From a virus (lineage: Duplodnaviria > Caudoviricetes): DNA of 64,000 nucleotides. The notes under the pieces were generated by a model. That model saw nothing but the letters and a program-made list of their open reading frames with translations, was not told the DNA's origin and did no database searches. Where the stretch lies: the IMG/VR virus record IMGVR_UViG_2571042740_000001, positions 10,801 to 74,800 of that record; one strand, given 5' to 3'. Of this stretch, positions 3,408 through 61,995 are shown in pieces; positions within the stretch are counted from its first letter, which is position 1; the number at the start of each line of letters is the position of its first letter. The position numbers and the translations under genes were made by a program.

Positions 3408-3461
3408 AATTTGCCCCTTTCTGAATGGGATCAACTGAGTATTATCCCTCAGCGTTATCCT

Positions 3462-3490: not shown

Positions 3491-3595
3491 GTCATTTCGC
3501 AATCATAAATCGGAGAATAATCCCGATGTTTCAGCAGGATAACTGGTCAATATACAGAAAAAAGCGGCCTCCTGTAATCAGAAAGCCGCATAGTA

Positions 3596-27432: not shown

Positions 27433-29073
27433 CTACAGAACGATCAGGTCATGATCGGGTTCGTCATAGACACTGCCCTGCATTTCATGGCGGATCACTC
27501 TGTCGAGTGCCATGATCCATGCGACAATGCCGTCGATTTTCTCAGTACTTTTCTTTTTGCTCGGTTTGATATTCTCCGCCGCATCAATTTCAGCGACCAC
27601 ATTTCCTGCCATCCATCTGAGAACGGGATTGCCGCCGTGAACGAACATACCTTCGAGTATGAGCTTGTACAGCTCCTTCATCGGCGGTGACATATCCTTG
27701 AAGCCCATGCCCATCGGAACAACGGTAAATCCGTCTCCCTCAAGGTCTGTGATCAGCTGTGTAGCGTTCCATCGGTCGGCTGCGATCTCCTTAATGTTAT
27801 ACATGGTGTGCAGTTCGTTGATCGTTTTACGAACAAAGTTATAGTCCACCACATTGCCCTCTGTGATATGAAAAAGTCCCATGCGCTCCCAGACATCGTA
27901 GGGAACATGATCTCGCCGCACACGCAGGTCAAGCGTTTCTCTCGGCAGCCAGAAGTGTGGGACAACGATGTATTTTTCGCCCTCTGTCAACGGCGGGAAC
28001 ACCAGAACAAAAGCGGTGATATCCGATGTGCTGGAAAGGTCCAGTCCCGCATAGCACTCTCTGCCTCGTAGCTTTTCAAGGTCGATCGGTAGATTTCCTC
28101 TGTCGTAGATATGCTCCGGGATCCATGCGACCGCACTGCCGACCCACTGGTCGAGTCTAAGCTGACGGAATACATTTTCTTCAGCAGGATTTGTCAGCGC
28201 CTCACGGTGCGCATCACGGACACGGTCAATGGTGATCGTATGCCCGAGAGACGGATTTGCTTTGTACCATGATTCCTCGGCGTTCCAGTCGTCATCATCG
28301 TTCAAGCCATATATAACAGGATAGAAGGAAGGGTCGATGCGTCTGCCGTCCAGAATATCTTTTGCTTTGGTGTGGTATTCGTAGCAGATGCTGTTGCGGT
28401 CAGTGCCGGCGGTGGTAATAAGGAAGTACAGCGGCTGTGTTCGTGCGTCGCCGGAGCCCTTTGTGAGAACATCCACAAGGCTACGGTTCGGCTGCGCGTG
28501 AAGCTCGTCAAGTACCAGACCGGATACATTCAGACCGTGCTTTGTGCCGACTTCAGCCGAAAGCACCTGATAGAATCCCACATTGCTGTAGTTCACCAGT
28601 CGTTTTGTCGCCGCCATGATCTTGGAGCGTTTCAGAAGCGCCGGCGTCATTTCCACCATGCGCTTTGCAACGTCAAAAACGATGGAAGCCTGCTGCCGGT
28701 CAGCGGCAGCACCATAGACTTCGGCGGACGGCTCGTTGTCGGCGTACAGCAGATACAGTGCAATTGCCGCTGCAAGCTCCGATTTTCCGTTTTTCTTCGG
28801 AATCTCAACATATGCTGTACGGAATTGCCGGGTGTCGTCTTCTTTTACAACACCGAAAATATCCCGGATGATCTGCTCCTGCCACGGCAGCAGCCAGAAC
28901 GGTTTGCCCGCCCATCTGCCCTTGGTGTGGCAGAGGTTTTCTATAAAGCGAACAGCCCTGTCCGCTTTTGCCGCATCGTAATGGGAGTCCGGCAGCATGA
29001 AGCGGGTGGGCTGATAATCGGTGAGTTTCGGATAATTCGCAGGTCTTTCTCTTGCTTTTGCTGTTCTTGCCAT
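27433..29073 (-). CDS. terL: Terminase large subunit
   Basis: Walker A PKKNGKS, VLDELH, GLDLS, KIDG. Confidence 0.95.
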   Translation of the reverse strand: MARTAKARERPANYPKLTDYQPTRFMLPDSHYDAAKADRAVRFIENLCHTKGRWAGKPFWLLPWQEQIIRDIFGVVKEDDTRQFRTAYVEIPKKNGKSELAAAIALYLLYADNEPSAEVYGAAADRQQASIVFDVAKRMVEMTPALLKRSKIMAATKRLVNYSNVGFYQVLSAEVGTKHGLNVSGLVLDELHAQPNRSLVDVLTKGSGDARTQPLYFLITTAGTDRNSICYEYHTKAKDILDGRRIDPSFYPVIYGLNDDDDWNAEESWYKANPSLGHTITIDRVRDAHREALTNPAEENVFRQLRLDQWVGSAVAWIPEHIYDRGNLPIDLEKLRGRECYAGLDLSSTSDITAFVLVFPPLTEGEKYIVVPHFWLPRETLDLRVRRDHVPYDVWERMGLFHITEGNVVDYNFVRKTINELHTMYNIKEIAADRWNATQLITDLEGDGFTVVPMGMGFKDMSPPMKELYKLILEGMFVHGGNPVLRWMAGNVVAEIDAAENIKPSKKKSTEKIDGIVAWIMALDRVIRHEMQGSVYDEPDHDLIVL

Positions 29074-29546
29074 CAGCCGCCTCCCAGAAGTGCATCCATA
29101 TCGTCAACGGCGGCGTCCTTCATATCTGCACCGGCAGTGATACGGCTTCTTGCTGCCGGAGTCAGTCCGAACTGTTCTGCGATCTTGTTCATGATCTTCA
29201 GATAGGTCTGCGCAATGCTGACCTGCGGGACCTGCTGCCAGTAGCCGGATTTTGTTTTTACGATCGTGCCGTGCTGCGTCATGAATTCCTCGGCTTCCTT
29301 CCAACGGGCGTATGCCTGACAATAGGATGCGAATGCCGCCTGATCGACCTCGGTCAGCACACCGATCGCTTCAAGCTGTTTGGATAGCCTGCGCCATTCC
29401 TTTTTTGCTTCGGGCTCCAGCCACTTCGGACAGGGCGGTGCTTTTTTCACAGGCTTTGGTTCAGCCTCATTCAGCGGACGCTTGCCCGGATTGCCTTCCA
29501 GCTCTTTGATCGCAGTGGGTTTTGGTTTTCTGCCTCTCTGAGCCAT
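29073..29546 (-). CDS. terS: Terminase small subunit, P27 family
   Basis: GRKPKPT, GNPGKR, FGLTPAAR. Confidence 0.92.
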   Translation of the reverse strand: MAQRGRKPKPTAIKELEGNPGKRPLNEAEPKPVKKAPPCPKWLEPEAKKEWRRLSKQLEAIGVLTEVDQAAFASYCQAYARWKEAEEFMTQHGTIVKTKSGYWQQVPQVSIAQTYLKIMNKIAEQFGLTPAARSRITAGADMKDAAVDDMDALLGGG

Positions 29547-29627
29547 CCGCATCACTCCTTCCTGTAAAAATGTGCATAAAGAAAAGAGCCTGCATTTGCA
29601 AGCCCTTTCTATGTATGTTTGCTGCCT

Positions 29628-29867
29628 TTAGTTGTACTCATGCATCAGGATCGCCAGCGCCATTTCTGCGGCTTCGTTCTGGGGCGGAACATCTTCGCCC
29701 CGGTCGTAGTTGTAAATGACCTTGCCCTCGACCTTCAGTGTCAGTTTGCTGATCCTGCCGCCCTCGATTCCGTACTGGCTGCCCTCGTCGTAGGCTTTCA
29801 CCCAGTAGTGAACCACCGTGTACTTTCCGTTGTCATTCGGGACTCCGATCGTACCTTCATGCCACAT
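29628..29867 (-). CDS. Small hypothetical protein (cassette 1)
   Basis: MWHEGTI...YGIEGGRISKL...NYDRG; strong SD and own promoter. Confidence 0.8.
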   Translation of the reverse strand: MWHEGTIGVPNDNGKYTVVHYWVKAYDEGSQYGIEGGRISKLTLKVEGKVIYNYDRGEDVPPQNEAAEMALAILMHEYN

Positions 29868-29924
29868 AATGTTTTCCTCCGTATTTTCGTAGTTTTCGGC
29901 TCGGTTTCCCGTTCCGTTGTACAC

Positions 29925-29953
29925 ATATTAACTCTAAACATTGAATATATCAA
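29925..29953 (-). promoter_or_regulatory. Cassette promoter P1
   Basis: TTGATA-N17-TAATAT; plus-strand core catattaactct. Confidence 0.85.
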
Positions 29954-30047
29954 GTGTGAGTAATAACAATGATCTCTGCGGTAGTTTCCGCTTGTTTGTG
30001 TACTTTACGCCCGCCCACAGGAGACGTGTAAACGTACTGTTTGGGGC

Positions 30048-30076
30048 TTGTATTTTCAGTCGAATAATGATATACT
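30048..30076 (+). promoter_or_regulatory. Moron promoter TTGTAT-N17-TATACT (TG extended)
   Basis: Directly upstream of a structured leader and an AT-rich ORF. Confidence 0.65.
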
Positions 30077-30207
30077 GTTAATGTGAGGTTATCATCTCAC
30101 ATATATGAGATGGTAGGCTCGTATCCCCCACAGTTATTGGGGGTAAAACTAAAGTTTTCTATTAATCTGAGATGATTTTGCTCACATTTGAGTTGGTGGT
30201 ATTAATT

Positions 30208-31176
30208 ATGGATAATATGTATTGGCCGGTATATAAAAATATCGAAAGAGAGTTTTTAAAAATTGCTGAATATATTAATATTTGTGACGAGCAGTTGAAA
30301 GTATATTCGTTTCATATTGCTGATTTAATTATTAGATGCGCAATTGAAATAGAGGCTATTTCAAAAGAATTATATAAAAGATTGGGCGGAAATATGAACC
30401 CAGTAGATGAGAATGGAAAAACAAGAGACTTATATTTTGATACGGATTGTTTAGGACTCTTAGAAGAAAAATGGGGCATCAGTAAAAAGAAGGTAAAAGT
30501 CTCTGCATTAGAAGTGTTTTTGACTAGAGAAGAAAATATAATTCTTACTCCTTTGAAAAAATCGAATAAGAGGGGATCAAGTGGCTCACAATGGAAAAAG
30601 GCGTATCAAGCATTAAAGCATGACAGGCGAAATTCACTAAAATGCGCAACTATTGAAAATTTAATTTCTTCAATGGCTGCCTTATTTATTCTTAATTTGT
30701 ATTATAAAGATGAGACATCTGATCTTGGAAGATTATATATGAATGATAGAACATTTGATAGTAGAGCCGGCTCAGACATCTTTAATGCATATGTAGTATC
30801 TGCAACGACTTTAAGAATGGAACTAGAAATGGATGATTTAAATATAATAAATATAGATGAAGAAAAGAGGAAAGAATCCATTTTTATTATAAAATACACT
30901 GACAGCACATACCGTGAAATGCATAGAGCTTTTTGCTTAGATTATTATGAGACCAAAAGTAACTTTGACAAATCAGAAGTTATACAAAAATATGTGGCAG
31001 AACATCCTGAATCCAAGGAGAAGTCTATGAACGAGATTTGCATTGAAGCTGGAGGACATGAATTATTATGCAATATTTTTGTTAATAGGCATTCTTTAAA
31101 TTCAAAAAACTATAGGACAGAAGTTATCGTTAATAAAAATGAGGATATATATCAAAAATTAAAATACATAGATTAA
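30208..31176 (+). CDS. AT-rich moron, hypothetical (HEPN-like; possible defence protein)
   Basis: Low GC; ADLIIRCAIEIE and WKKAYQALKHDR motifs; likely start MDNMYW. Confidence 0.75.
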   Translation: MDNMYWPVYKNIEREFLKIAEYINICDEQLKVYSFHIADLIIRCAIEIEAISKELYKRLGGNMNPVDENGKTRDLYFDTDCLGLLEEKWGISKKKVKVSALEVFLTREENIILTPLKKSNKRGSSGSQWKKAYQALKHDRRNSLKCATIENLISSMAALFILNLYYKDETSDLGRLYMNDRTFDSRAGSDIFNAYVVSATTLRMELEMDDLNIINIDEEKRKESIFIIKYTDSTYREMHRAFCLDYYETKSNFDKSEVIQKYVAEHPESKEKSMNEICIEAGGHELLCNIFVNRHSLNSKNYRTEVIVNKNEDIYQKLKYID

Positions 31177-31345
31177 TATTTATCAATACGGATGGTTGAA
31201 GAATAATCATTATATAAATGATAGGAGCAACAATTTCGCAATCCATTTAATAATTGACATTAGCAACGCAATGCAGAAAATTGGAGGAGCGTAGGAATAC
31301 TACTCACTAAGCAAGACTTTATTACTATCACAGAATACATAACGA

Positions 31346-31373
31346 GGCAGAGGCCCCTTTCGGGGGTTCTGCC
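31346..31373. terminator. GC-rich hairpin at the end of cassette 2
   Basis: ggcagaggcccc-tttc-gggggttctgcc. Confidence 0.55.
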
Positions 31374-31380
31374 TTTTGGC

Positions 31381-31725
31381 TTATCTGCCGGTCATCCATT
31401 CCCATTCGCTTTCGCAGGCGTCTGCGTACTCTGCCTCGAAAAGTGCATCGTCGTCGATCCATTCGGTTTCGTAGTCAATATCCTCGATGCCCTCAAAGGT
31501 CGTGCCGTTTGCGGCGGCATCTTCCTGCACAAGGCTGTCGGCGTTCTCCTCAACCCAAGCACTGAAGTCTTCTGCGTCGAGGTCGTCCTCGTTCTCGACC
31601 TCCAGTTCGTAGCCTTTATCCTCGGTGTCGTACCAAAGGATCGTGGCGCTTCTGATCGCCTCGCGTGCGTTCCAGTCGTCTCTGCCTGCCATTGCTCTTG
31701 CCTTTGCCATTCCGTAGCTGATCAT
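31381..31725 (-). CDS. Very acidic small protein (cassette 2)
   Basis: 114 aa, about 35 D/E versus about 7 K/R by hand count; GGAGG SD. Confidence 0.8.
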   Translation of the reverse strand: MISYGMAKARAMAGRDDWNAREAIRSATILWYDTEDKGYELEVENEDDLDAEDFSAWVEENADSLVQEDAAANGTTFEGIEDIDYETEWIDDDALFEAEYADACESEWEWMTGR

Positions 31726-31780
31726 TGTTTTTTCCTCCGCTTTTCGTTGTTTTGGTGGGCTTTGCCCTTCCGTTGTGTAC

Positions 31781-31809
31781 ATATTAACTCTGAATGCGAA
31801 TAATAGCAA
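31781..31809 (-). promoter_or_regulatory. Cassette promoter P2
   Basis: TTGCTA-N17-TAATAT. Confidence 0.85.
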
Positions 31810-31917
31810 GCCGCTAAATGTACAGAAGATACGTGAAAAATGTTCGGCAGGTGTTGTGTATTATATGCCGCCTATATGAGGTTCGGCAGCCCCTCCGCAG
31901 AAGGGCTGCCCGCTGGT

Positions 31918-32280
31918 TTACTTGCTCTTGCGTCCCGCCTCGTAAGCCGCCGTGAGCGCCTCCTTGATCTCCCAGACGGCGACCTCGAAGAAGTCATCGT
32001 CGTCCTTCATGCGGGTTTCGAGGTCACCCCGCTGTTCCACGCTTATGATGTGGGAGAAGGCGATGCCGGTGATGACCTTATCCACCCCGGTCAGGCTGTC
32101 GAGGTGCGCCATTCGCAGTTCCGCCTTTGCCTTGCCGAGGGCTGTCTGGAGGTTGATCAGGCAGGTCTCCTTCGGGATGCCGTAGATCTCCGCGCAATCC
32201 TCATCGGTCATCTGCTCGGTGGCAGTGATGCCGTTCTCCAGCATCTTGATCTTCTCCTCGATTCTCTGCTTCTTGGTCAT
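31918..32280 (-). CDS. DUF6900-like protein (cassette 3)
   Basis: LETR..D.DDF.EVAVWEIKEALTAAYEAG. Confidence 0.75.
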   Translation of the reverse strand: MTKKQRIEEKIKMLENGITATEQMTDEDCAEIYGIPKETCLINLQTALGKAKAELRMAHLDSLTGVDKVITGIAFSHIISVEQRGDLETRMKDDDDFFEVAVWEIKEALTAAYEAGRKSK

Positions 32281-32335
32281 GTTTATGTCCTCCGTGTTTT
32301 TATTCCGGTGGGCTTTCCGCCCTTCCGTTGTACCC

Positions 32336-32364
32336 ATATTAACTCTGAAAGCACATTATATCAA
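32336..32364 (-). promoter_or_regulatory. Cassette promoter P3
   Basis: TTGATA-N17-TAATAT. Confidence 0.85.
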
Positions 32365-32463
32365 GCCACTAAAACTACAGAAGATACGTGGGAAATGTGT
32401 GGCGGGTGTTGTGTATATTACTTCGTAGTAGTCAAATAGTTGGTTTGATAAATCACAGTTCAC

Positions 32464-32492
32464 TTGACAGACCTTTCCCAATTTGATATAAT
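32464..32492 (+). promoter_or_regulatory. Consensus sigmaA promoter for moron
   Basis: TTGACA-N17-TATAAT with TG. Confidence 0.85.
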
Positions 32493-32525
32493 GTAAGCAA
32501 ATTATTGAGCAACTTGGAGGTCAAC

Positions 32526-32855
32526 ATGGATGAGAAAAAACTAAACCCATTTGAGATATTGAAACAGTATTCATCATATGGTCATAATAGTGGTGAACGT
32601 TATCAGGCCCATGTTTTGGGCACAACATGTGACAAGAATAATTATAACGCGATTCTCTTTGTTTGTTTACAGATTGATGTCAATCGAAATTATGCAGAAA
32701 TCATCATAGAGGGAGATGCACAGTATTTCAATTACAGTTTTAAATCCTCTTATTCAACCGACAATAGTGCATTCAAATTGATAAACAGAACACTTATCAT
32801 TAAAGGAACAGATAAATTCGGCAACAACATAACACTTGAAATAACTGAAAAATGA
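32526..32855 (+). CDS. Small AT-rich moron, hypothetical
   Basis: GGAGGT SD before ATG 32526; consensus promoter. Confidence 0.75.
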   Translation: MDEKKLNPFEILKQYSSYGHNSGERYQAHVLGTTCDKNNYNAILFVCLQIDVNRNYAEIIIEGDAQYFNYSFKSSYSTDNSAFKLINRTLIIKGTDKFGNNITLEITEK

Positions 32856-32936
32856 GTGCGGAACGGAGGTATGTGTCTTGGTACACTAACCTCCGTTTTT
32901 TACTATCAGTCCTATTATCCTATCTGCAGTTCAATA

Positions 32937-33290
32937 TCAATCGTCGAGAGGAATCGGCATCAGGATGTTGCCGACCAGTACGAAATCGTATGCCTGCCGG
33001 AAGAACTCCGTGTATTTCTCGGTCAGCTCCTGCGGCAGGTCGGTGAAGTCATCCTCGCCCAAACCGCAAAGGAAGAACGTACCCTTGATGACACCGTAGC
33101 CTTTGATTGGGCGGTTCCATTCCTGCTCCGGATGGTAGAGGGCTTCCTCCTCGCACACCAGTGCGACCGGATCATCGAAGGGGTAAATCGCCTGAATGTA
33201 TCCGCCGACCGTCTGCTGCAGGCTGTCAAGCTCTCCGCTGATCTCCTTTGCGTAGGGGCGCTTTCCCGGTTCAACAACTAAAATGTTCAT
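32937..33290 (-). CDS. DUF3846-like protein (cassette 4)
   Basis: ILVVEPGK.PY, LQQTVGGYIQ, IKGTFFLCG. Confidence 0.8.
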   Translation of the reverse strand: MNILVVEPGKRPYAKEISGELDSLQQTVGGYIQAIYPFDDPVALVCEEEALYHPEQEWNRPIKGYGVIKGTFFLCGLGEDDFTDLPQELTEKYTEFFRQAYDFVLVGNILMPIPLDD

Positions 33291-33335
33291 GTGAATGCTC
33301 CTTTGTGTTTATTCCGCTTCTCTTGCGGTAGTGAC

Positions 33336-33364
33336 ATATTAACTCTGAACCGAGGATATATCAA
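33336..33364 (-). promoter_or_regulatory. Cassette promoter P4
   Basis: TTGATA-N17-TAATAT. Confidence 0.85.
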
Positions 33365-33425
33365 GCATTATCGGCAAAATAAATGTGACAAACATCGCGG
33401 CGGAAATGCCGCTGAATTGTACATC

Positions 33426-33530
33426 GCACAAGAGCCGTACACGTGCGCTGTGTGGGGCTGGTTACCGAAAGGGATACCGTTTGGAGGATATCCGTCCCGC
33501 GCCACACGTTGCAACGTGGCGGCTCTGTGC
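33426..33530. repeat. Long imperfect hairpin, copy A (candidate structured RNA)
   Basis: gcacaagagccg...gtgtgg / ccacac...cggctctgtgc arms; inner ccgaaaggg..ttggaggata.ccgtcccgc shared with copy B. Confidence 0.7.
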
Positions 33531-33533
33531 GCC

Positions 33534-33737
33534 TTATTCTTCGCCTTCGTACTTCTCGTGGATGATGCCGAGAATCTTGTCCTGTTCCTCACGTCCGACG
33601 CCGATGCTTTCAAGTGCCTCACGCGTTCCGCAGTCGGGGCAGATCGGGCTGTTATCCACGCGGGAAAGGGCTGGTCGGGCGGTATACGCCTGCCCGCATT
33701 TCGGGCAGATGCGCGGCTCGTTGTTGCGGTCTTTCAT
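33534..33737 (-). CDS. Small zinc-finger protein
   Basis: CPKCG...CPDCG; overlaps the GGCT stop. Confidence 0.75.
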   Translation of the reverse strand: MKDRNNEPRICPKCGQAYTARPALSRVDNSPICPDCGTREALESIGVGREEQDKILGIIHEKYEGEE

Positions 33738-34198
33738 CGCTGTACCTCCTTTGCGCTGATTTCGTAGGCGGCATCGAGGAACTTGGTATCGAAGCCGAAG
33801 TTCCGGTAGCCTTCCTCGCAGGTGCGGATGTAGGCAAGCGACGGAATGCCGAGGCTGCGTTCCTCATGCATGATGTATACGAAGGCGGTCAGCTTCTTGG
33901 TCTTGCCACTTGCCAGCTTCACCGGCAGGCGGACTTCCTTCTTGTAGTAGAAGGTCGGGCAGCCCTCGTAGGCATCCAGCCGTTTCTCGTCGGCTGCGGT
34001 GACCTCCCAGACCGCAATCGGAACGATGCCGTTCTTCTTCGGTTCAATGGTCAGGTACGCGCCTGTCTTGCTGCCCTTGTAAAGCAGCTCGTAATCGGGA
34101 ATCACCGTGATCCCGATGGGCTTTGCGCCGGGGCAGCGGTACCGCATCTGGCGGATGTTCAGGTTCGAGCCGTAGGCAAGGTAGTACTTCTTTTCCAT
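33734..34198 (-). CDS. Gamma-glutamylcyclotransferase (AIG2-like) protein
   Basis: YLAYGSNL..QM..RCP, LDAYEG.P..Y. Confidence 0.9.
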   Translation of the reverse strand: MEKKYYLAYGSNLNIRQMRYRCPGAKPIGITVIPDYELLYKGSKTGAYLTIEPKKNGIVPIAVWEVTAADEKRLDAYEGCPTFYYKKEVRLPVKLASGKTKKLTAFVYIMHEERSLGIPSLAYIRTCEEGYRNFGFDTKFLDAAYEISAKEVQR

Positions 34199-34276
34199 GT
34201 CAATCGTCCTTTCCGAAGGAAGTCTCCTTCTACCACCCTGAGCCGCCCGTAGGCGGCAGGTGGGGAAAGGCGGCAG

Positions 34277-34471
34277 TTACTTTTCCGCCTTGCCCAGTTC
34301 GTATGCCTTGCGGAGCATCTCTCGGATGCCCCAGACGCTCACCTCCGGGAAGTCATCGGTGTCGTTCCAGCGGGTGTCCAGCCCGCCGCGCTGTTCCAGT
34401 GCGTAGTCCGCTTTCATTGCGATCTGCTCCAGCTTCTTGTCGGTTTCCGTTCCCCATTCGATGTTGCTCAT
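34277..34471 (-). CDS. Second DUF6900-like protein (cassette 5)
   Basis: EQRGGLDTRWNDTDDFPEVSVWGIREML.KAYELG. Confidence 0.75.
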   Translation of the reverse strand: MSNIEWGTETDKKLEQIAMKADYALEQRGGLDTRWNDTDDFPEVSVWGIREMLRKAYELGKAEK

Positions 34472-34523
34472 TGCTCGTTCCTCCGTGTTTGTTTTTCCGG
34501 TCGTTTTCCGTTCCGGTAGTCAC

Positions 34524-34552
34524 ATATTAACTCTTTTCGGGGAGAATAGCAA
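34524..34552 (-). promoter_or_regulatory. Cassette promoter P5
   Basis: TTGCTA-N17-TAATAT. Confidence 0.85.
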
Positions 34553-34624
34553 GCCGCTAAATGTACAAAACATCACGGGGGAAAATGTGCCATTCTTTGT
34601 GTAGTATATGCCTTGCCGTTGTTT

Positions 34625-34714
34625 GCGCCGTGCGCGCCCGTGTGCGGGCTTTTTCCGAAAGGGGCAGTTACTTGGAGGATACCCGTCCCGCCCCACACGG
34701 GGCGCTGTGGGCGA
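34625..34714. repeat. Long imperfect hairpin, copy B (candidate structured RNA)
   Basis: gcgcccgtgtg / cacacggggcgc arms with the same inner motif as copy A. Confidence 0.7.
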
Positions 34715-34749
34715 CTGTTTCGCCGCCCTTGCCCGTGGCGGCAGACCGG

Positions 34750-35694
34750 TTAAGGTCTGCCGAATCGGAAGGCGTTGTCGCCGGTAAGGTTCTGCGTCAG
34801 GGTTTCTCTTGCGGTGGCGAACTCGTCGCCAATGAAGCCCATTCTCATCAGCCAAGTCCGCATCGCGAACTTTTTGTTTTCTTTCTGCTGTTCCTTCGGG
34901 CTTGCGCTGCGCAGGTCTTTTGCCATCTGGCTCATTGCGAGGCAAAGCTGAATGTAGCTCTTGAGCTTGCCTGCGTGAAGCCCGTTCTGCTTGCCGCCTG
35001 CGGGCTTGTCGAACTGGAAAAGGCGGAATTCAATCGTGCCCTTTGTGAAGGTGGCGTGGAGGTTCAGCATATGGTAGCGGCTGTCGTTGTAGTGGTGGGT
35101 TCTGCCGTAGTCGCATCCCTGTGCGCCGTACCAGATGTCTGCAAGCTGCGCCATCGTGGTGGGCTTCTTTTTGTTGAGCTGCTGCAGGAAATTCGGGTTT
35201 ACCGTTCTGCAGTAGCGGTTCATTCGGCTGCTGTCAACCTTGATTGCTTCGGCGATCAGCGTTTCGTGGCTTGCCATCAGGTTTGCGAGGTTTCTCAGGC
35301 TCTGCGGTGTGTGTCCCGCTGCGCCGATGTGAATGTGAACTCCGCAGCCCCTTGTGTAGTCGCTCTTTGCGCCCGCCTTGCGAAGGCGTCTGATCAGCTC
35401 CTGCAGGGTTTCGATGTCCGCGTAGTGCAGGATCGGTGTGACCAGTTCGCACTTTTCGCTGTCCGGTCCGCTGATGCTGCAGTCGCGCTGGAATTTCCAC
35501 TCGCGTCCCTGCGCGTCCCAAGCGCTGTAGGTTTCGTAGCCGTTGCGGTGTGCGGTGTACTCGCTGCGGTTTGTTCCGAAGAACTCGGCGGCGAGCTTTG
35601 CGGCAGCCTTGCGGGTGATGTTGTTCATCTCAACCTCAACCCCGATCGTCTGCTCCTTCATTCTGTTGATCTGTGCCTGTGTCTTTGCGTTCAT
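34750..35694 (-). CDS. Phage putative amidoligase (COOH-NH2 ligase type 2) (cassette 6)
   Basis: IGVEVE, D.SI, ELVTP, CGVHIH, SRY..LN, TIEFRLF. Confidence 0.9.
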   Translation of the reverse strand: MNAKTQAQINRMKEQTIGVEVEMNNITRKAAAKLAAEFFGTNRSEYTAHRNGYETYSAWDAQGREWKFQRDCSISGPDSEKCELVTPILHYADIETLQELIRRLRKAGAKSDYTRGCGVHIHIGAAGHTPQSLRNLANLMASHETLIAEAIKVDSSRMNRYCRTVNPNFLQQLNKKKPTTMAQLADIWYGAQGCDYGRTHHYNDSRYHMLNLHATFTKGTIEFRLFQFDKPAGGKQNGLHAGKLKSYIQLCLAMSQMAKDLRSASPKEQQKENKKFAMRTWLMRMGFIGDEFATARETLTQNLTGDNAFRFGRP

Positions 35695-35745
35695 GGTGGT
35701 ATCCTCCTGTTTGGTTTTTGGTGTGTTTTCCCTTTCGGTAGTCAC

Positions 35746-35774
35746 ATATTAACTCTAAACCGAGGATATATCAA
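35746..35774 (-). promoter_or_regulatory. Cassette promoter P6
   Basis: TTGATA-N17-TAATAT. Confidence 0.85.
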
Positions 35775-35918
35775 GCCGCTAAAACCACAGAAATACGAGG
35801 AAAATACAGCCTTGATGATTGTGTATTTTACATTCTTGACACACTTGATTTTCTATGGTAATATTGGGTACGATGGAATAGGTTCTCACATTTTCCGGCG
35901 CCCCCGGAGGCTGTAAAA

Positions 35919-36149
35919 TCAGCCGCCGGAGATGACCTCGAACTCGTCTGCGCCTTCGATCAGCGCAAGGCTTCTGCCGTTGTCCCACTTCATATGAATG
36001 TTGCCTGCATCGTCGATGATCGCAACCGTTCCGGTTGTTCCGGGCGGCACGGGCGCGATGTCGTCCGCCATGCGAATCAGTCGGATGCGTGTACCTACGG
36101 GATAACGCTCGCGCAGCGCCTGAAGCTGTCTTTCATTCGGAAATTGCAT
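35919..36149 (-). CDS. DUF4314-like protein
   Basis: [31 protein letters not shown]. Confidence 0.82.
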
Positions 36150-37164
36150 CGTTTTCTTCCTCCTCGCTATTCTGAGCATCACGCTTTGCCTTCTGCTTCG
36201 CTTCCCAGCGCTCACGCTCCGCTTCATTGCGGAATGCGGTATGCCCGGAAAGGTTCTCCATCAGGCGCTTGCGGTCTGCCTTGCAGTCTTTTCCGTTCAG
36301 CCCAAGGCGGATCAGCCAGACGCGGAGCGAATACTTCTCGTTGCTGTCATCGACATCCTTTGCCTGAACACGCTTCTGGGTAATTGCCATCTTGTTCATA
36401 GCTGCGGCAAGCTTCATGAAAGTCTGCACATGCTCAGCATCCTGTGCCTGACCGAAGCCGTCGAAGGTGAGCTTGTCATCATCGAAGGATATTCCCATCA
36501 GCGGAGTACTCATCTCACCCCATTCCCTAACATATGAAATCAATTCATTCACACTCCGGAATACCTTCTCATCAAGGATCGAATCCACCAGTTCCTTGTC
36601 TGCAAAAAATGTACCGCCGGTTGCTTTGGAGATCAGAGGTCCGCGGGAGTGGATCATACAGATCAGATTTGTGAGGGACTGTACTGTATGCGCATTCAGG
36701 GAAAAAGAGATTCTTGTGCAAAGATACTCATCTGATTCAGATTCCGCATTTTTGTAAACTGAATCCCGGCTTTCATCCATATCGCTTTCCGGAATGATCT
36801 CAGGCTCCGATTCTGACACTTCTGCAGGCGATTCTTCGATGAAGGGCGGCTCATCTTCAAGCTGTTCATCATCACCCCATTCTTCTGTGGTTTCAGCCGC
36901 AAGACTGATTTCCGGAGGTGTCTCCACATGTGTATCGTCTTCGCTGATCAGCGCACCGATCATACCTTCTTTTGTAAGAATGCCGATAATCAGTTCATCT
37001 GCATCATTCGTTGTTGTCAGTTCGCCGTCTTTCTCAACCGTGAATTCCCCGACTTCAAAAGCGCATCTCGGTACAAAGGTATATCTCGCTTTCTTCCTCG
37101 TAAGCTCTTCCAGTCTCTTTACCAGTTCTTTGCGGTTTGGAATCTTCTGTGCATAAGTTTTCAT
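36133..37164 (-). CDS. Phage 'virulence-related'-type protein with amidoligase-like C-terminal domain (cassette 7)
   Basis: N-terminal RKELV...Y...P..AF.VG; C-terminal [14 protein letters not shown]...NLSGHTAFR. Confidence 0.75.
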
Positions 37165-37231
37165 ATGTGTACGCTCCTTTTTCATTATTGCCGTCCAACC
37201 GTCCTATACGGTCTTCCCCGGCGGTAGTCAC

Positions 37232-37260
37232 ATATTAAGCTATTTTGCTGATAATATCAA
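37232..37260 (-). promoter_or_regulatory. Cassette promoter P7 (more diverged)
   Basis: TTGATA-N17-TAATAT; gcggtagtcacatattaa core. Confidence 0.8.
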
Positions 37261-37387
37261 GACTGTAAATCGGAGAATGTAAGGGGCTATATTGCCCATG
37301 TGATTGTGCATAGTACAGAATCTGAAATGCCGAACAGCTTACTTAGTATCAGTTCGTTCACAATTTGCTGCAGCGGCGGTACAGATA

Positions 37388-38669: not shown

Positions 38670-38969
38670 TCATTCCTCCCGTATATACATCTGCCGCAGC
38701 TCTGCGGCTCTTTTGGTGTTCGCATCTTTCAGCACCGTGACATCACGGAGCGTTTCTTCACTCAGAGGCTTGCCCTTCAGCTTTTCGGCAAGTGACCGGT
38801 ACTTGCGGATACTCCGGCGGAGTGCTGCATCGGTCACAGACACGATATACGCTTTGCCGCAATAGTCACAATTGAAGAAGCTGTATTCGATCTCTCCCTC
38901 ACGCTGCGTTTTCGGCTCCGGCACAAAGGCACAGCCGCAGGCATCGCAGCGGACATTCTGTTTTGTCAT
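38670..38969 (-). CDS. Hypothetical protein with two CxxC motifs
   Basis: CDAC...CDYC; coupled to its neighbours. Confidence 0.7.
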   Translation of the reverse strand: MTKQNVRCDACGCAFVPEPKTQREGEIEYSFFNCDYCGKAYIVSVTDAALRRSIRKYRSLAEKLKGKPLSEETLRDVTVLKDANTKRAAELRQMYIREE

Positions 38970-39433
38970 ATCGGTCTGCCTCCTTTGAGTCTGAGTATCC
39001 GCTGATTGCGGCTGCCGCGGAACTGAAGCGAGATATCCTTCTGTTCCAGCAGGAACGGCCCGTCCACAAGCACATCAACATAACGGAGAATTTCATTGTT
39101 CCGAAGTATCTCGTAAGTGTATCCGGAGAACAGCCAGGTGTCCGAATTCGGACACTCCATCTTTACCCGTTTCAGAAACGGTATAAGCACACGCTCGTTT
39201 TCTTCCTCGCATGGTTCACCGCCGAGAACAGAAAGTCCCTGTATCCAAGAAGGACGCAGGGATTCGATGATCTCATCTTCAGTTTCCTTTGTGAAGGGCT
39301 TCCCGTACCCGAAATCCCATGCCTCTGGATTATGACAGCCTTTGCAGTGATTCCGGCACCCGGATACAAACAGTGACACACGCACACCGTAACCGTTGGC
39401 AATGTCGTTTTTATTCAGACCGCAGTAATTCAC
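38966..39433 (-). CDS. nrdG: Anaerobic ribonucleotide reductase activating enzyme
   Basis: SGCRNHCKGCHN radical-SAM motif, GGEP, RGSRNQR. Confidence 0.95.
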   Translation of the reverse strand: MNYCGLNKNDIANGYGVRVSLFVSGCRNHCKGCHNPEAWDFGYGKPFTKETEDEIIESLRPSWIQGLSVLGGEPCEEENERVLIPFLKRVKMECPNSDTWLFSGYTYEILRNNEILRYVDVLVDGPFLLEQKDISLQFRGSRNQRILRLKGGRPI

Positions 39434-41571
39434 AGGTGCATCACCCGATCCTTGATCTCAGCGGTGCGCCCCTGATTCCAGAACTGCGTTCCAAGGTAAC
39501 CGCAGGTGCGGCGGCATACATTCAGTGTCCGCTGATCGCGGTTGCCGCAGTTCGGGCATTCCCAGATCAGCTTGCCGTCCTCCTCGGTGATCTGTATCTC
39601 GCCGTCATACCTGCAGACCTGACAGTAATCAGATTTCGTGTTCAGCTCAGCATACAGGATGGTTTCGTAGATATGCCGCATCAGCGCCAGTACCGCTGGG
39701 ATGTTGTTCTGCAGATTCGGTACTTCCACATAGGAGATTGCACCGCCGGGAGAAAGCGCCTGAAACTCCGCTTCAAAGGTCAGCTTTGAAAACGCATCGA
39801 TCGGCTCGGTGACATGAACGTGATAGCTGTTTGTGATATAGCTTTTATCCGTCACATGAGGAATGATGCCGTGCCGCCTTTGCAGACATTGTGCAAATTT
39901 GTATGTGACGCTCTCCATCGGTGTGCCGTACAGCGAGAAGCTGATATTAGTCTCGGCTCTCCATTTGCTGCACTTGTCATTGAGAAATCTCATGACCGCA
40001 AGAGCGAAGGTCTTACCGTCCGGCTCTGTATGTGAACAGCCTGTCATGCGGTATGTCATCTCTGCGATGCCTGCATAGCCGAGGGAGATGGTGCTGTAAT
40101 TGTTGTACAGCAGATCATCAATGATCTCGCCGTCCTTCAGTCTTGCCAGCGCACCGTTCTGCCAGAGGATCGGTGCAACATCGGACGGCGTTCCTTTGAG
40201 CCGTTCGTGCCTGCACATGAGAGCCTTACGGCACAGTTCGCAGCGTTCATTCAGAAGCTGCCAGAACTTATTCTCGTCACCGCCTGCGCTGCAAGCGATA
40301 TCCACAAGGTTGATGGTTACAACACCCTGATTAAAACGCCCGTAATACTTGTGATCGTCCGAAGGCGTGAGAAAACTTCGGCAGCCCATGCAGGCATACA
40401 CATCACCCTTCAGCTGTTTCATCACCTTGGCGGAGATGTAGTCGGGAACCATGCGCTTTGCCGTACACTTGGCGGCAAGCTCAGTCAGGTAGTAATATTT
40501 TGTTCCGGGTTGGATATTGTCTTCATCGAGAACATAGATCAGTTTCGGGAATGCTGGTGTGATCCAGACACCCTTTTCGTTTTTCACACCTTCGATACGC
40601 TGAAGCAGCGTTTCTTCGATGGTGAGCGCTAGGTCATCTCTGGTCTGTCCCTCCGGCACCTCGTCCAGATACATGAACACCGTTACGAACGGCGTCTGTC
40701 CGTTGGTGGTGAGCAGCGTATTGATCTGGTACTGAATGGTCTGCACGCCGCGCTTGACTTCCCGGCGTACTCGCTTCTCAACGATGTGGCTGATCTCATC
40801 CTCAGACAGTTTGCAGCCGCAGTCGCAGTTCACATCCTCGAATACTTCAGCTCGTATCTTCTGCCTGCTGACATCCACGAAAGGCGCAAGATGCGCCAGT
40901 GATACAGTCTGACCGCCGTACTGATTCGATGCGACCTGCGCAATGATCTGCGTTGCGATATTGCAGGCGGTCGAAAAGCTGTGCGGCTTCTCGATCATTG
41001 TACCGGAAACCACTGTGCCGTTCTGCAGCATATCCGCCAGATTGACCAGACAGCAGTTGTGCATCGGCTCAGCGATATAGTCCAGGTCGTGAACATGGAT
41101 GATACCCTCATCATGAGCGGCGATCACATCTGCCGGGAACAGGAAGCGCCGACAGATGTCTCTGCTGACTTCGCCTGCCATATAGTCCCGTAGCGTGCTG
41201 TTGATGATCGGGTTCTTATTGGCGTTCTCCTGTTTTGCCTCCTCGTTGTTGCGTTCGAGCAGGCTCAGGATCTTGCCGTCTGTGGTGTTCATCCTGCGCT
41301 GCTGTTCATGCAGCAGTCTGTATTCGCTATAGTGCCGTGCAAGTTTGTACGCTTCGGCCTTGTCCAGTTCATCGAGAACCATGTCCTGGACTTCTTCGAC
41401 ATGGACAGGTCTTGCAAGGGCGCTGCAGCGTTTTTCTACATTACTGACAATGAATCCGATCACGGTATCGCTGATCTTGCCATCGACCTCTGCGTTTGCA
41501 GCTGTGATCGCGGCACGGATCTTTTCGCAGTCGTAGGGAACCTCACACCCGTTTCTTTTTATAATTTTCAT
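39430..41571 (-). CDS. nrdD: Anaerobic ribonucleoside-triphosphate reductase (class III)
   Basis: ATP cone, HNCCL, MGCRS, TNSYH, CPNCG, RTCGYL glycyl-radical motif. Confidence 0.96.
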   Translation of the reverse strand: MKIIKRNGCEVPYDCEKIRAAITAANAEVDGKISDTVIGFIVSNVEKRCSALARPVHVEEVQDMVLDELDKAEAYKLARHYSEYRLLHEQQRRMNTTDGKILSLLERNNEEAKQENANKNPIINSTLRDYMAGEVSRDICRRFLFPADVIAAHDEGIIHVHDLDYIAEPMHNCCLVNLADMLQNGTVVSGTMIEKPHSFSTACNIATQIIAQVASNQYGGQTVSLAHLAPFVDVSRQKIRAEVFEDVNCDCGCKLSEDEISHIVEKRVRREVKRGVQTIQYQINTLLTTNGQTPFVTVFMYLDEVPEGQTRDDLALTIEETLLQRIEGVKNEKGVWITPAFPKLIYVLDEDNIQPGTKYYYLTELAAKCTAKRMVPDYISAKVMKQLKGDVYACMGCRSFLTPSDDHKYYGRFNQGVVTINLVDIACSAGGDENKFWQLLNERCELCRKALMCRHERLKGTPSDVAPILWQNGALARLKDGEIIDDLLYNNYSTISLGYAGIAEMTYRMTGCSHTEPDGKTFALAVMRFLNDKCSKWRAETNISFSLYGTPMESVTYKFAQCLQRRHGIIPHVTDKSYITNSYHVHVTEPIDAFSKLTFEAEFQALSPGGAISYVEVPNLQNNIPAVLALMRHIYETILYAELNTKSDYCQVCRYDGEIQITEEDGKLIWECPNCGNRDQRTLNVCRRTCGYLGTQFWNQGRTAEIKDRVMHL

Positions 41572-43471: not shown

Positions 43472-44566
43472 TTAAATTTCCCACGGAAGCCCCGATTTTC
43501 CGAAGTGTCCGTATGCAGAAACCTTGTTATAATCAACATCGAGTAGACCGAGACTCTCGATAATCCCTCTCGGTGTGAGGTCGTAGTTCTCACGGACATA
43601 CTGGTTGATAAACTCCGCATCCTGATGCTCTGTTCCGAAGGTCTCCACATACACGGACACAGGTTCGGCCACACCAATGGCGTATGCGATCTGCACTTCT
43701 GCCTTGTCTGCATATCCAGCACTGACGATATCCCTTGCGATCTTGCGGGCGGCATACGCACCGCTGCGGTCAACTTTAGTCGGATCCTTGCCGGACATCG
43801 CACCGCCGCCAATGTGTCCGATTCCGCCGTAGGTATCGCAGGCGAGTTTGCGTCCGGTCACGCCGCAGTCTGCAAAAGAGCTGCCGAGAACGAATCTGCC
43901 GGTCGGATTGACCAGTTTCTCAAAGTCAGTATTCAGTCCGTACTCTGTCGCTGTTCTCACCATCAGCTTTTCAATGATCGGTCTGAAATCCTCAACATCC
44001 ACATCGCGGATATGCTGTACCGAACAGAGGAAGGTCGTGATCCTGCCGCTGTCATAATCAAAGCTGACCTGCGCCTTGGCATCGGCTTTCAGCATGCGGC
44101 AGGGGTACGCTTTCAAAAGTTCCAGAAATCTGGTTGCGATCACATACGGGATCGGGAGCAGTTCCGGCGTTTCATTGGTCGCATAGCCGTACATCATGCC
44201 CTGATCTCCGGCACCGCCGGTATTCACACCGAGGGCGATATCGTTACTCTGATGATCGACCAGAATCGCAATGTCCAGATCATCGGAGGTGAAGTCCAGC
44301 TTATAGTCAAGTCCGGCATCGCTGTTCTCTGCACCGCCGTTGTTGATGCAGTCAAACACCTGCTGCACCAGAGCCTTGTAGTCCGGCTCATGGGTACTGG
44401 TCAGCTCACCTGCAATGACAAGGCATCGGTTCTTGAAAAGGCACTCGATCCCAACACGGCTGTCGCGGTCATGCTGAAGGCAGTCGGTCACAATTGCATC
44501 TGCGATCTGGTCACAGATCTTGTCGGGATGTCCTGCTGAAACTTGTTCACTTGTAATGATTCTCAT
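43472..44566 (-). CDS. metK: S-adenosylmethionine synthetase
   Basis: SEQVSAGHPDK, GAGDQG, GGGAMSGKDPTKVDRS, YGHFG. Confidence 0.93.
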   Translation of the reverse strand: MRIITSEQVSAGHPDKICDQIADAIVTDCLQHDRDSRVGIECLFKNRCLVIAGELTSTHEPDYKALVQQVFDCINNGGAENSDAGLDYKLDFTSDDLDIAILVDHQSNDIALGVNTGGAGDQGMMYGYATNETPELLPIPYVIATRFLELLKAYPCRMLKADAKAQVSFDYDSGRITTFLCSVQHIRDVDVEDFRPIIEKLMVRTATEYGLNTDFEKLVNPTGRFVLGSSFADCGVTGRKLACDTYGGIGHIGGGAMSGKDPTKVDRSGAYAARKIARDIVSAGYADKAEVQIAYAIGVAEPVSVYVETFGTEHQDAEFINQYVRENYDLTPRGIIESLGLLDVDYNKVSAYGHFGKSGLPWEI

Positions 44567-44567
44567 A

Positions 44568-44756
44568 TTATTTTTCCTCCTGATTTTTCTTTTCAAATAC
44601 GCACAAGAGTGTGCAGAATACATCCGAGCTTTCCAGCACCGTAGTCTGTGTAAGCTCAAATTCCGGATTCTTATCCAGCTTTTCGTTGATCACATCTGCG
44701 ATTGTCTTACCGTATTCCTTGTTGACGGTACCACGCAGAATTGCTGTTCTCTGCAT
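44568..44756 (-). CDS. Small hypothetical protein
   Basis: GGAGGT SD before MQRTAIL; abuts metK. Confidence 0.55.
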   Translation of the reverse strand: MQRTAILRGTVNKEYGKTIADVINEKLDKNPEFELTQTTVLESSDVFCTLLCVFEKKNQEEK

Positions 44757-47491: not shown

Positions 47492-47967
47492 TCGGGATGT
47501 CTCCTTTCAAGGAAAAGCTGTGCAATGACAGCGGTTTCAATACGGTTCATCGCATCGGCATCCGAAATATGCCCTGCATAGCTGCGGAGCGCATGCTTGC
47601 TGACAGTCGTTAGCTGCTCCGCAAGGATCATGGACGGATCCAGATGCTGATGAAGATCGGAAATACTGTCGGGGAACAGATGCGTATGGCACGGCAGCTC
47701 CGGCTTTTTCAGATGCCGCGTCATGGGAACGATATTGACCGTGTCGGCGTGTGCGTTGCCCATATCATTCGAGAGAATGATCACAGGACGAATGCCGCCC
47801 TGCACGCTGGAATCCGGATGACTGCCAAGATCCGCAAACCAGATGTCACCGCGCTGCGGTTTGTGTTCAGTTGTGTGATGCTGCACCGGCGCAGTGATAT
47901 ATTTTCTCGGATCGAAGCCGAGCCCTCTGTGGTATTCTGTTTTCAGGCGTTTATTCTTACGCGCCAT
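47482..47967 (-). CDS. PemK/MazF-family protein
   Basis: RGDIWFADL, QGGIRPVIILSND, IVPMT, LAEQLTTVSK. Confidence 0.88.
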   Translation of the reverse strand: MARKNKRLKTEYHRGLGFDPRKYITAPVQHHTTEHKPQRGDIWFADLGSHPDSSVQGGIRPVIILSNDMGNAHADTVNIVPMTRHLKKPELPCHTHLFPDSISDLHQHLDPSMILAEQLTTVSKHALRSYAGHISDADAMNRIETAVIAQLFLERRHPECL

Positions 47968-48063
47968 AGTTTTCACCTCCGTGGTCTGCGGCGTAACCGA
48001 ATTGTCGCCGCTTTGCCGTCTTTCTGTCGTCAAATAGAGATAGATCATACTGCATGTATAAGG

Positions 48064-61769: not shown

Positions 61770-61995
61770 AATTAAGGCTCTATGCTGTGACACCTTTTTG
61801 GAATCATGGCACAGAGCCTTGTTTTGCTTGACAATTGCTCGATATTGTCAGCAAAGATGCGCTTGCGGTTGAGTACTATACATTTACTTTTTAGACGAAA
61901 AAGTGCGGATCGTGTATTGAAAAAATCAGCGGATTGTGCTATAATAACCAATATAATACATGGCTATAAGCATAGTTTTAAGAGGTGTAAATACT

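Follow-up and report, generated by a model that had tools for sequence, protein, structure and literature searches.

A repeated promoter-like module heads seven small-gene cassettes in a temperate siphovirus prophage

The 64-kb stretch of the viral record IMGVR_UViG_2571042740_000001 (Duplodnaviria; Caudoviricetes; positions 10,801 to 74,800 of the record), hereafter called the window, carries an array of small-gene cassettes, each headed by one copy of a repeated promoter-like module; all coordinates below are window positions. The window corresponds to a temperate siphovirus prophage read on the minus strand, and the array sits between the gene of a ParB-methylase and that of the small terminase. 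The repeat follows the pattern TTGMTA-N17-TAATATG (M is A or C), seven copies of which lie in the window, every one on the minus strand and within 29924–37260; shuffled sequences are expected to yield 0.02 matches, and none of 100 shuffles reaches seven. The −10 boxes of the seven copies lie at 37232, 35746, 34524, 33336, 32336, 31781, and 29925 (modules P1 to P7, respectively). The core AGAGTTAATATG (plus-strand reading catattaactct) is common to six of the seven copies (six matches against 0.20 expected), and P1 carries AGCTTAATATG in its place. A repeat finder, run independently of the motif, returns a seven-copy family of 49 nt as well as families of 85–98 nt that link P2, P3, P5, and P6, and the alignment of the modules shows similarity from approximately 55 nt upstream of the −35 box through to the ribosome-binding site. 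The repeat is a real, statistically unambiguous, family-wide feature. The initial annotation of this DNA, made from the sequence, had proposed seven minus-strand promoters at these −10 positions, six of them sharing one core, with a related A-rich leader behind each; the motif counts and shuffles confirm the seven promoter-like copies and the common core, and the alignment confirms the leader.

In the 3,649,758-base genome that was scanned, the strict motif again has seven matches, every one of them in the array, and the reversed control has none. With a weight matrix derived from related modules (and built, like the family counts given below, on loci found with the motif itself), the seven copies score 27.3–76.5, and the next site of the genome scores 3.9; a relaxed primary-sigma pattern matches the genome 326 times. 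Since the seven copies far outscore the rest of the genome, the motif is not simply a host housekeeping promoter. The earlier expectation that it should not be equally common at such promoters is thus borne out by both the scan and the matrix, which place all matches in the array.

The modules, all on the minus strand, are laid out similarly. On the coding strand, the upstream box TACACAA is exact in five of the seven, about 51 nt upstream of the −35 box, with the variants TGCACAA at −50 in P1 and TGTACAA at about −59 in P4, in agreement with the box reported earlier upstream of each promoter. P1 (37162..37312) has TGCACAA at 37306–37312, the −35 box TTGATA at 37255–37260, the −10 box TAATAT at 37232–37237, and the start codon of the following gene at 37164; it is the weakest copy (matrix score 27.3), and the element AGAGT is absent from it. 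P2 (35692..35825; TACACAA 35819–35825, −35 35769–35774, −10 35746–35751, start codon 35694) has the score of 76.5. P3 (34469..34603; TACACAA 34597–34603, −35 TTGCTA 34547–34552, −10 34524–34529, start codon 34471) scores 65.1. P4 (33288..33423; −35 33359–33364, −10 33336–33341, start codon 33290) shares 92% identity with P2 over 49 nt, a span that includes the spacer. P5 (32278..32415; TACACAA 32409–32415, −35 32359–32364, −10 32336–32341, start codon 32280) is 84% identical over 98 nt to P6 (31723..31860; TACACAA 31854–31860, −35 TTGCTA 31804–31809, −10 31781–31786, start codon 31725; score 69.3). Finally, P7 (29865..30002) has TACACAA at 29996–30002, −35 at 29948–29953, −10 at 29925–29930, the start codon at 29867, and a score of 54.7. 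The five TTGATA-type modules agree with the sigma-70 consensus at 9 of 12 positions, have the 17-bp spacer, and retain the key A2 and T6 of the −10 box.

The genes behind the modules are short and also lie on the minus strand. Cassette 1 starts with a 343-aa divergent amidoligase paralogue with an acidic insert (36133..37164), which matches PHROG 2443 ("amidoligase enzyme", E 4e-38) and has no Pfam match; its C-terminal part of about 75 aa shares 32% identity with the cassette 2 amidoligase (E 4e-12). This gene is followed by one for a DUF4314 protein of 76 aa (35919..36149; PF14192, E 6.5e-30). Cassette 2 consists of an Amidoligase_2 gene (34750..35694, 314 aa; PF12224, E 2.4e-56; PHROG 2443, E 1.7e-117). 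Cassette 3 comprises three genes, encoding a DUF6900 protein (34277..34471, 64 aa; PF21841, E 4.6e-17), present in some close relatives and absent from others; a gamma-glutamyl cyclotransferase-like protein (34198 down to 33734, 154 aa; PF06094, E 1.8e-11; PHROG 2520, E 2.6e-53); and a zinc-ribbon protein (33534..33737, 67 aa; PHROG 2945, E 2.5e-24), whose zinc-ribbon Pfam matches are weak and below the cut-off. Cassette 4 encodes a DUF3846 protein (32937..33290, 117 aa; PF12957, E 1.4e-29), and cassette 5 a 120-aa protein with a C-terminal DUF6900 (31918..32280; PF21841, E 9.5e-18). The product of cassette 6 (31381..31725) is a very acidic 114-aa protein with 35 Asp and Glu against 7 Lys and Arg residues (net charge about −28), matching no Pfam or PHROG family. 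Cassette 7 encodes a DUF7678 protein (29628..29867, 79 aa; PF24726, E 1.3e-31), which in relatives is always the last one before the packaging genes. Most cargo identities of the initial annotation hold, namely, those of the acidic protein, the two DUF6900 proteins, DUF3846, the cyclotransferase, and the amidoligase; the last cassette, previously assigned to DUF4314, is DUF7678, and DUF4314 is the second gene of cassette 1. The amidoligase paralogue of cassette 1 and the zinc-ribbon gene of cassette 3 are additions to that list.

Of the seven stretches following the cassettes, five have folds clearly more stable than those of shuffles (z −2.4 to −4.0), the one after the amidoligase gene is marginal (z −1.8), and the one after the DUF4314 gene is not significant (z −0.5). 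The marginal stretch is a GC-rich hairpin region at 34615..34749 (minus strand; −63.5 kcal/mol, z −1.78). A long hairpin follows cassette 3 (33425..33533, minus strand; −50.1 kcal/mol, z −3.97, none of 200 shuffles being as good), and a shorter one follows cassette 5 (31885–31910, minus strand; −25.6 kcal/mol, z −2.42). Two hairpins are common to a cassette and a plus-strand gene facing it (moron 1 or moron 2, see below): the inverted repeat at 32862..32897, between cassette 4 and moron 1, is followed by a T run on the plus strand, its enclosing 81 nt folding at −21.8 kcal/mol (z −3.91), and that at 31345..31374, between cassette 6 and moron 2 (−20.5 kcal/mol, z −3.42), overlaps a plus-strand terminator call at 31352–31368. 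Behind cassette 7, a hairpin followed by UUUUCUUUAU forms a canonical intrinsic terminator (29580..29610, minus strand; −17.9 kcal/mol, z −3.84), situated between the array and the small terminase gene (29073–29555, minus strand; Terminase_4, E 3.3e-31), a placement suggestive of insulation between the array and the late operon. No promoter is visible on the minus strand at 29556–29627, between the terminator and the start of the small terminase gene; does transcription of the late operon, then, proceed by read-through or by anti-termination?

A second repeat, of about 70 nt, lies inside the hairpins that follow the zinc-ribbon and amidoligase genes (33450–33519 and 34640–34710, minus strand). 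It contains TATCCTCC, complementary to the ribosome-binding site of the amidoligase gene, GGAGGATA; in close relatives, the repeat is found again some 133 nt ahead of a module.

The leaders are approximately 45–70 nt long here, with a median of 39 nt in relatives, and consist of 46% A and 6.8% U. Their mean fold energy is −6.4 kcal/mol, compared with −3.9 kcal/mol in shuffles; base pairs cluster towards the 5′ end, and the ribosome-binding site stays largely unpaired. The better folding, with stems that differ in sequence between modules, and GGA triplets at 2.45 per leader against 1.04 in shuffles might point to a structured regulatory RNA, i.e., a riboswitch or a protein-binding leader, as the reason for the repeat. 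We consider this highly improbable, as the window has no Rfam match at the gathering score (at E <= 1, the only match in the array is a chance miRNA match at 32842–32912, plus strand), the hairpins are short (3–5 pairs) and heterogeneous, and the conservation in related modules is strongest in the DNA upstream of the predicted transcription start. The GGA excess comes largely from the ribosome-binding site GGAGGA, and a CsrA-type leader, also considered, was dropped on these grounds.

The upstream box is part of a dyad, TACACAA ... TTCTGTA. Relatives yielded 474 unique modules. Of these, 311 have a TACACA-type box some 50 nt ahead of the −35 box, against 14.2 in shuffles, and 199 have both this box and a second, inverted half-site TBTGTR, against 0.8 in shuffles. 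The favoured start-to-start spacings of the half-sites are 34, 22–24, and 15 bp, successive values being about a helical turn apart.

At least 158 stretches of viral contigs carry the motif, as do at least 143 from species-representative genomes. A hand count of titles for the 80 genome matches listed gives 53 from Ruminococcus, Ruminococcaceae, or Oscillospiraceae, 18 from unclassified Clostridia or Bacillota, 3 from Lachnospiraceae, and 6 others. A ribosome-binding site and an open reading frame (ORF) come after every one of the 137 unique viral modules, and likewise after all seven copies here; in 103 of the 137 the start codon lies 40–59 nt after the motif; their first genes fall into 24 clusters, the largest of which are the families present in this array. 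In five related phage records, 29 of 29 matches (4–9 per record; control, 0) lie on one strand and in one region of 5–11 kb per record; the module is confined to a single one-strand array in each phage. In a set of 80 related loci bearing the amidoligase gene, with genes called by a promoter-anchored caller, 11 have no matrix match, and those inspected retain a diverged version of the layout. The best matches in INPHARED (12 records) reach only about 74–77% identity and are restricted to the genes of the methylase, amidoligase, or small terminase. We found no published description of this module and, among the papers listed, nothing relevant on a conserved promoter or intergenic repeat in Ruminococcus prophages, most subscription journals and supplements lying outside the coverage of the search.

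Whole cassettes differ between relatives. In the closest ones, with amidoligases 93–100% identical to the one here, three elements are variably present, namely, the cassette of the acidic gene, that of the long DUF6900 protein, and the small DUF6900 gene; more distant relatives have other cargo and up to nine modules. The gene content is therefore not invariant, as the initial annotation anticipated, and its description of the array as shuffled by recombination holds for the gain, loss, and replacement of cassettes; it does not hold for their order, which is collinear across relatives, with the amidoligase first and DUF7678 always last. Several of the differences can be located. The block 31862–32936 (cassette 5 and moron 1) is missing in relatives; in the relatives L175 and L179, the interval from 34501 to 34196 is unmatched, the break at 34502 coinciding with the end of the conserved leader. 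Homology breakpoints recur at the start of the TACACAA box (−52/−57), at the end of the conserved leader (+50), and at start and stop codons.

Direct evidence comes from a junction in locus L172, which has no acidic-gene cassette. Upstream of the −35 box, its module before the DUF7678 gene matches that of the acidic gene in L171 (96% identity over −50..0), and from the −35 box onward it matches the DUF7678 module (93–95%), as would be left by one homologous crossover between two modules. Generally, upstream halves and leaders of the 474 modules are strongly linked and yet reassort, 12 quartets showing all four combinations. On a larger scale, the array segment 36152–32941 is 94.5% identical to that of L171 over 3.2 kb, while the methylases are 69% and the large terminases 66% identical; as the array is far more alike than the genes flanking it, array blocks move between divergent phages. 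On the evidence of these sequence comparisons, the role of the module as a recombination handle is well supported: the likeness of the modules would allow homologous recombination between them, which would delete, insert, or replace whole cassettes and would also carry array blocks between otherwise divergent phages.

As a side observation, over its longer extent of 36152–29627 the array is about 88–94% identical to that of L171, a provirus with a different small terminase, and the left edge of the block in common is the start of the DUF4314 gene, not a module.

An alternative mechanism would be site-specific: the repeats might be recombination sites of an integron-like system, and not primarily promoters, served by the serine recombinases encoded at 712–6021. 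Four large serine recombinase genes at the prophage end and the gain and loss of cassettes at the repeats could be read in this way. However, the repeat always stands at a fixed distance before a ribosome-binding site and a start codon, neither the alignment nor the repeat search reveals a recombinase-type inverted-repeat core in the module, and the crossover of L172 occurred in a stretch of shared identity, as predicted for homologous exchange; hence, we give this alternative hardly any weight.

Between the modules, two AT-rich genes lie on the opposite strand. Moron 1 (32464..32855, plus strand; GC 0.33) has a promoter at 32464–32492, a perfect TTGACA-17-TATAAT with TG that agrees with the consensus at 12 of 12 positions, and an ORF of about 110 aa (32505/32526–32855) without a family match in Pfam, PHROG, PADLOC, or NCBIfam. 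Moron 2 (30172..31176, plus strand; GC 0.30) encodes 322–334 aa, with the likely start at 30208, and the N-terminal domain of its product resembles HEPN domains in the structure model. The GC content of the opposite-strand stretch is 0.32, that of the morons 0.30–0.33, and that of the array 0.48; each of the two genes has a plus-strand terminator hairpin common to the neighbouring cassette. Both form clusters of size one among the 80 amidoligase-bearing loci, and contigs of relatives from three runs join 31861 to 32937/32941 and, in one run, also 30051 to 31378, so that both moron blocks are skipped. A moron, in the concept of Hendrix and colleagues, is reportedly an additional gene that sits between phage genes and brings along a promoter and a terminator. 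The two plus-strand genes are true morons, being like them in having their own promoter and terminator, a foreign composition, and no counterpart in relatives, and this part of the initial annotation is borne out. As for AT-rich morons between modules in general, the description fits this prophage and fails as a trait of the family: among 63 sequences with at least two modules, 16 contain reverse ORFs (30 candidates), only three of which are AT-rich (the two described here and one in L240), and the other 27, with array-like composition, are probably artefacts of a simple gene caller.

The family of moron 2 has at least 1140 proteins, none of them named. The structure model (pLDDT 82.9) has HEPN or Csm6 entries, judged by title, as 12 of its 15 best structural matches; the best match has Z 8.4 and rmsd 3.7 Å over 125 residues, the Z value being middling for helical bundles, and Foldseek against the PDB yields nothing at E <= 0.001. 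The catalytic motif of HEPN domains is Rx4-6H. In the moron 2 family, Lys137–His138 is invariant and Arg140 nearly so, and the canonical motif could not be placed.

The seven minus-strand cassettes themselves differ from morons in that they share the strand and composition of the phage and a common promoter module, and form a structured array across the family. It is nevertheless conceivable that they are expressed in lysogeny from constitutive promoters, in the manner of morons, their cargo serving the lysogen, e.g., by superinfection exclusion or modification of the cell surface. A promoter of its own and a following hairpin for each cassette make up moron anatomy, and the terminator shields the late genes from array transcription; moreover, by analogy with a phage amidoligase, factors encoded in amidoligase-bearing Clostridium clostridioforme prophages may alter the cell surface against superinfection, as one paper suggests (PMC11318856). 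We nonetheless find this unlikely, because the cassettes have the strand and composition of the lytic genes, unlike the two AT-rich morons, and because the dyad box at most modules suggests regulation.

Taken as a whole, the explanation that we favour, and consider probable, is that the array is where a temperate siphovirus prophage, with a host of the Ruminococcus/Oscillospiraceae type, keeps its variable accessory genes, between the early and replication genes, the last of which is that of the ParB-methylase, and the packaging genes. The portable module, of approximately 135–150 bp, would consist of the upstream dyad box, the promoter, and the leader, and would be followed by one to three small genes and a hairpin. 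A promoter of the host primary sigma type (TTGMTA, 17 bp, TAATAT) would drive the genes of each cassette; the leader, with an exposed strong ribosome-binding site, would be stabilised by its 5′ hairpin; a regulator would act at the dyad box; and the GC-rich hairpin would end each cassette, with the canonical terminator insulating the packaging operon. We infer from the sequence the activity of the promoters and their use of host sigma-A, stabilisation by the leader hairpin, the regulator of the dyad box, and co-regulation of the cassettes. Expression after induction rather than in the lysogen is a guess, to which we lean only slightly.

Several observations weigh against this explanation or limit its parts. 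The two TTGCTA-type modules fall just under the threshold of the consensus scan, and in diverged relatives the −10 box reads GATATA/TGATATAT, so that the exact hexamer and the start site are uncertain by about 2 nt. As the loci were picked by the motif, its invariance at fixed positions is partly by construction. Most hairpins of the array have no U tail, the canonical one being found only in the last, and the 14 terminator-like sites of the region show no enrichment over the 9.5 ± 3.8 of shuffles. In four RNA-library runs, comprising small shares of the stretch, contigs cover cassettes of relatives but continue through promoters and hairpins; they reveal neither transcript starts or ends nor transcription itself, and DNA carry-over may be their source. 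With respect to recombination, 14 of 25 breakpoint clusters fall in module windows, which make up 17.7% of the region; however, 17 of the 25 are intergenic, and the module windows account for 1,372 of about 2,000 intergenic nucleotides, roughly two thirds by estimate. Because modules fill most of the intergenic DNA, the enrichment of breakpoints is not independent of gene boundaries; hence, the earlier proposal that the promoter repeat is the crossover unit is supported by the chimeric junction, the reassortment of halves, and the breakpoints at module edges, and not by an enrichment beyond that expected from intergenic position. Lastly, AGAGT and the dyad are conserved beyond the needs of sigma-A, which makes an additional DNA-binding factor likely.

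This last point bears on the possibility that a phage-specific factor is required, host sigma alone being insufficient, and that the modules mark a middle or late regulon. The factor could be an activator binding the dyad or the sigma-like protein of the phage (55996–56730, 244 aa), which contains sigma-70 region 4. Apart from the conservation of AGAGT and the dyad past what sigma-A requires, the absence of the strict motif from host promoters would agree with such a factor, as would the position of the last module, directly before packaging genes that show no promoter of their own. Yet three of five module-bearing relatives, including a 100%-complete provirus with seven near-identical modules, contain no match to the sigma-like protein at E <= 0.001, and the host primary sigma is therefore the most economical reading. 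Besides, the hexamers and the 17-bp spacing fit the primary-sigma consensus, from which the consensus of ECF-type promoters differs, and the array keeps its modules while moving between divergent backbones. A strict dependence on a phage factor thus appears rather unlikely to us. Slightly better, although still clearly a minority view, are the prospects of a more ambitious variant, in which the dyad, promoter, and leader form a dedicated regulon switch: a regulator binding TACACAA/TTSTGTA would turn all cassettes on together, the module would be both regulatory site and recombination handle, and the array would correspond, in phages, to the anti-defence islands that conjugative plasmids carry in their leading regions.

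What the cargo does can be approached through its relatives. DUF4314 relatives occur on 19 plasmid records, of which five are typed as conjugative and four as mobilizable; a DUF3846-like stretch with 45% identity lies inside a coding sequence annotated as "antirestriction protein ArdA", beside conjugative-transposon genes on a Vescimonas plasmid. A study of C. clostridioforme prophages describes the co-occurrence of two amidoligase genes with a gamma-glutamyl cyclotransferase gene (PMC11318856). For the acidic protein, with 111 relatives and a structure model of pLDDT 87.1, the best structural match (Z 5.9) is not a clear fold match, and Foldseek against the PDB gives nothing at E <= 0.001; its resemblance to the small phage inhibitors p56 and Gp2 (Z 4.0–4.5) was rejected as lying within noise. 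PADLOC, whose library contains defence rather than anti-defence models, has no matches for the 13 proteins searched; NCBIfam matches the sigma-like protein alone, and the ESM Atlas returned unnamed clusters only. A literature search for DUF3846, DUF4314, DUF6900, and DUF7678 (PF12957 and PF14192 included) returned a single paper. The host-takeover or anti-defence role claimed in the initial annotation hence finds no direct evidence, the links to ArdA, plasmids, and prophages being only circumstantial; a counter-defence role of the cargo is plausible but unproven.

Read on the minus strand, the prophage starts with an HTH/M78 regulator, the sigma-like protein, a DUF2800 nuclease, and an Enc34-type single-stranded DNA-binding protein, followed by a family-A polymerase, an SNF2 helicase, a D5-type primase, a SAM synthetase, NrdD/NrdG, the ParB-methylase, and the array; then come the small and large terminases, the portal, siphovirus tail genes, and a holin, and the prophage ends with an endolysin-like enzyme (GH25 and M15 peptidase) and four tandem serine recombinases. 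The latter (712–6021, minus strand; 396, 511, 491, and 322 aa) are all large, and integration would require only one of them. The replication module also encodes, between the primase and the helicase, a 188-aa protein in which a PemK/MazF-like toxin domain is preceded by an N-terminal extension (47482–48048, minus strand). The genes of the SAM synthetase and of an anaerobic ribonucleotide reductase with its activase (43472–44659, 39430–41571, and 38966–39433, minus strand) lie just upstream of the ParB-methylase gene. Among the distal tail genes, 11220–12569 (minus strand) encodes a BspA-type leucine-rich-repeat protein that may be a receptor-binding component. An AT-rich dip (GC 0.38–0.41) between Dit and the tape measure contains a 334-aa ORF on the plus strand (14621–15625) with no family match; no paralogy was found between it and the 334-aa ORF of moron 2 at 30172–31176 (E 2.6). 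Just beyond the regulatory end of the prophage, the plus strand carries a gene of an SRAP peptidase and one of a type I restriction-modification methylase subunit, HsdM (61137–63501).

The closest known system is that of the promoter-early stem-loop (PeSL) cassettes of T4-type phages. There, strong sigma-70-like promoters with stem-loops are repeated in hyperplastic regions before ORFans, and recombination between the elements explains insertions and deletions between close relatives (PMC2839356, Arbiol et al., 2010; PMC4122927, Comeau et al., 2014). The array shows the corresponding sequence features: a promoter repeat, stem-loops (at six of seven cassettes, one of them marginal), a variable region, and indel junctions within the repeats. 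In both systems, repeated sigma-70-like promoters are combined with stem-loops; the elements are intergenic, filling the gap between a stop codon and the ribosome-binding site of the following gene; they lie in a variable region ahead of small genes of unknown function; and differences between close relatives are attributed to recombination of the repeats. The proposed role of the PeSL stem-loops is to prevent early transcription from entering late genes; the terminator of the array is comparable. The differences are several. The phage carrying the array is a temperate siphovirus of Gram-positive anaerobes, while PeSLs belong to lytic T4-type myoviruses; one array of seven modules per genome stands against, as far as these sources describe it, about 50 PeSL copies over several regions; the array hairpin follows the upstream gene, whereas that of PeSLs is reported inside the promoter; and the module here has two further conserved parts, the upstream dyad box and the leader. 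Also, promoter and terminator activity and mini-circles are reported from experiments for PeSLs, while the promoters and terminators of the array are predicted from sequence. Given the siphovirus-type tail genes and serine recombinases of the phage, and its relatives classed as proviruses, the array is PeSL-like in working, not a PeSL by descent.

Another system to be compared is the host-takeover module of the Bacillus phage SPO1, which resembles the array in that small genes of mostly unknown function are densely clustered in a Firmicutes phage and apparently served by several host-type promoters. Its genes are small and driven by many early promoters recognised by host sigma. To our knowledge, neither a near-identical promoter-plus-leader repeat nor a role of recombination has been described for it. 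In contrast to the phage considered here, SPO1 is lytic, its module lies in the terminal redundancy, and the takeover functions have been shown by experiment. The module is described as a cluster of 24 genes with low similarity to known proteins (PMC10531801).

Should the dedicated switch be real, it would amount to a regulon shared by hundreds of Ruminococcus and Oscillospiraceae phages, into which new counter-defence genes slot at the module. We know of almost nothing on phage regulation in the abundant Firmicutes of gut and rumen. The module is a candidate for a strong, portable promoter-leader part for bacteria that are hard to engineer. The sequence tag formed by the −35 box, the 17-bp spacing, and AGAGTTAATATG marks the accessory region in hundreds of uncultivated phages and, with it, about two dozen cargo families as candidates for counter-defence or host-modifying roles. 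Under the explanation favoured here, the evolution of T4-type phages by recombination at promoter-cassette handles would operate also in temperate siphoviruses of gut and rumen Firmicutes.

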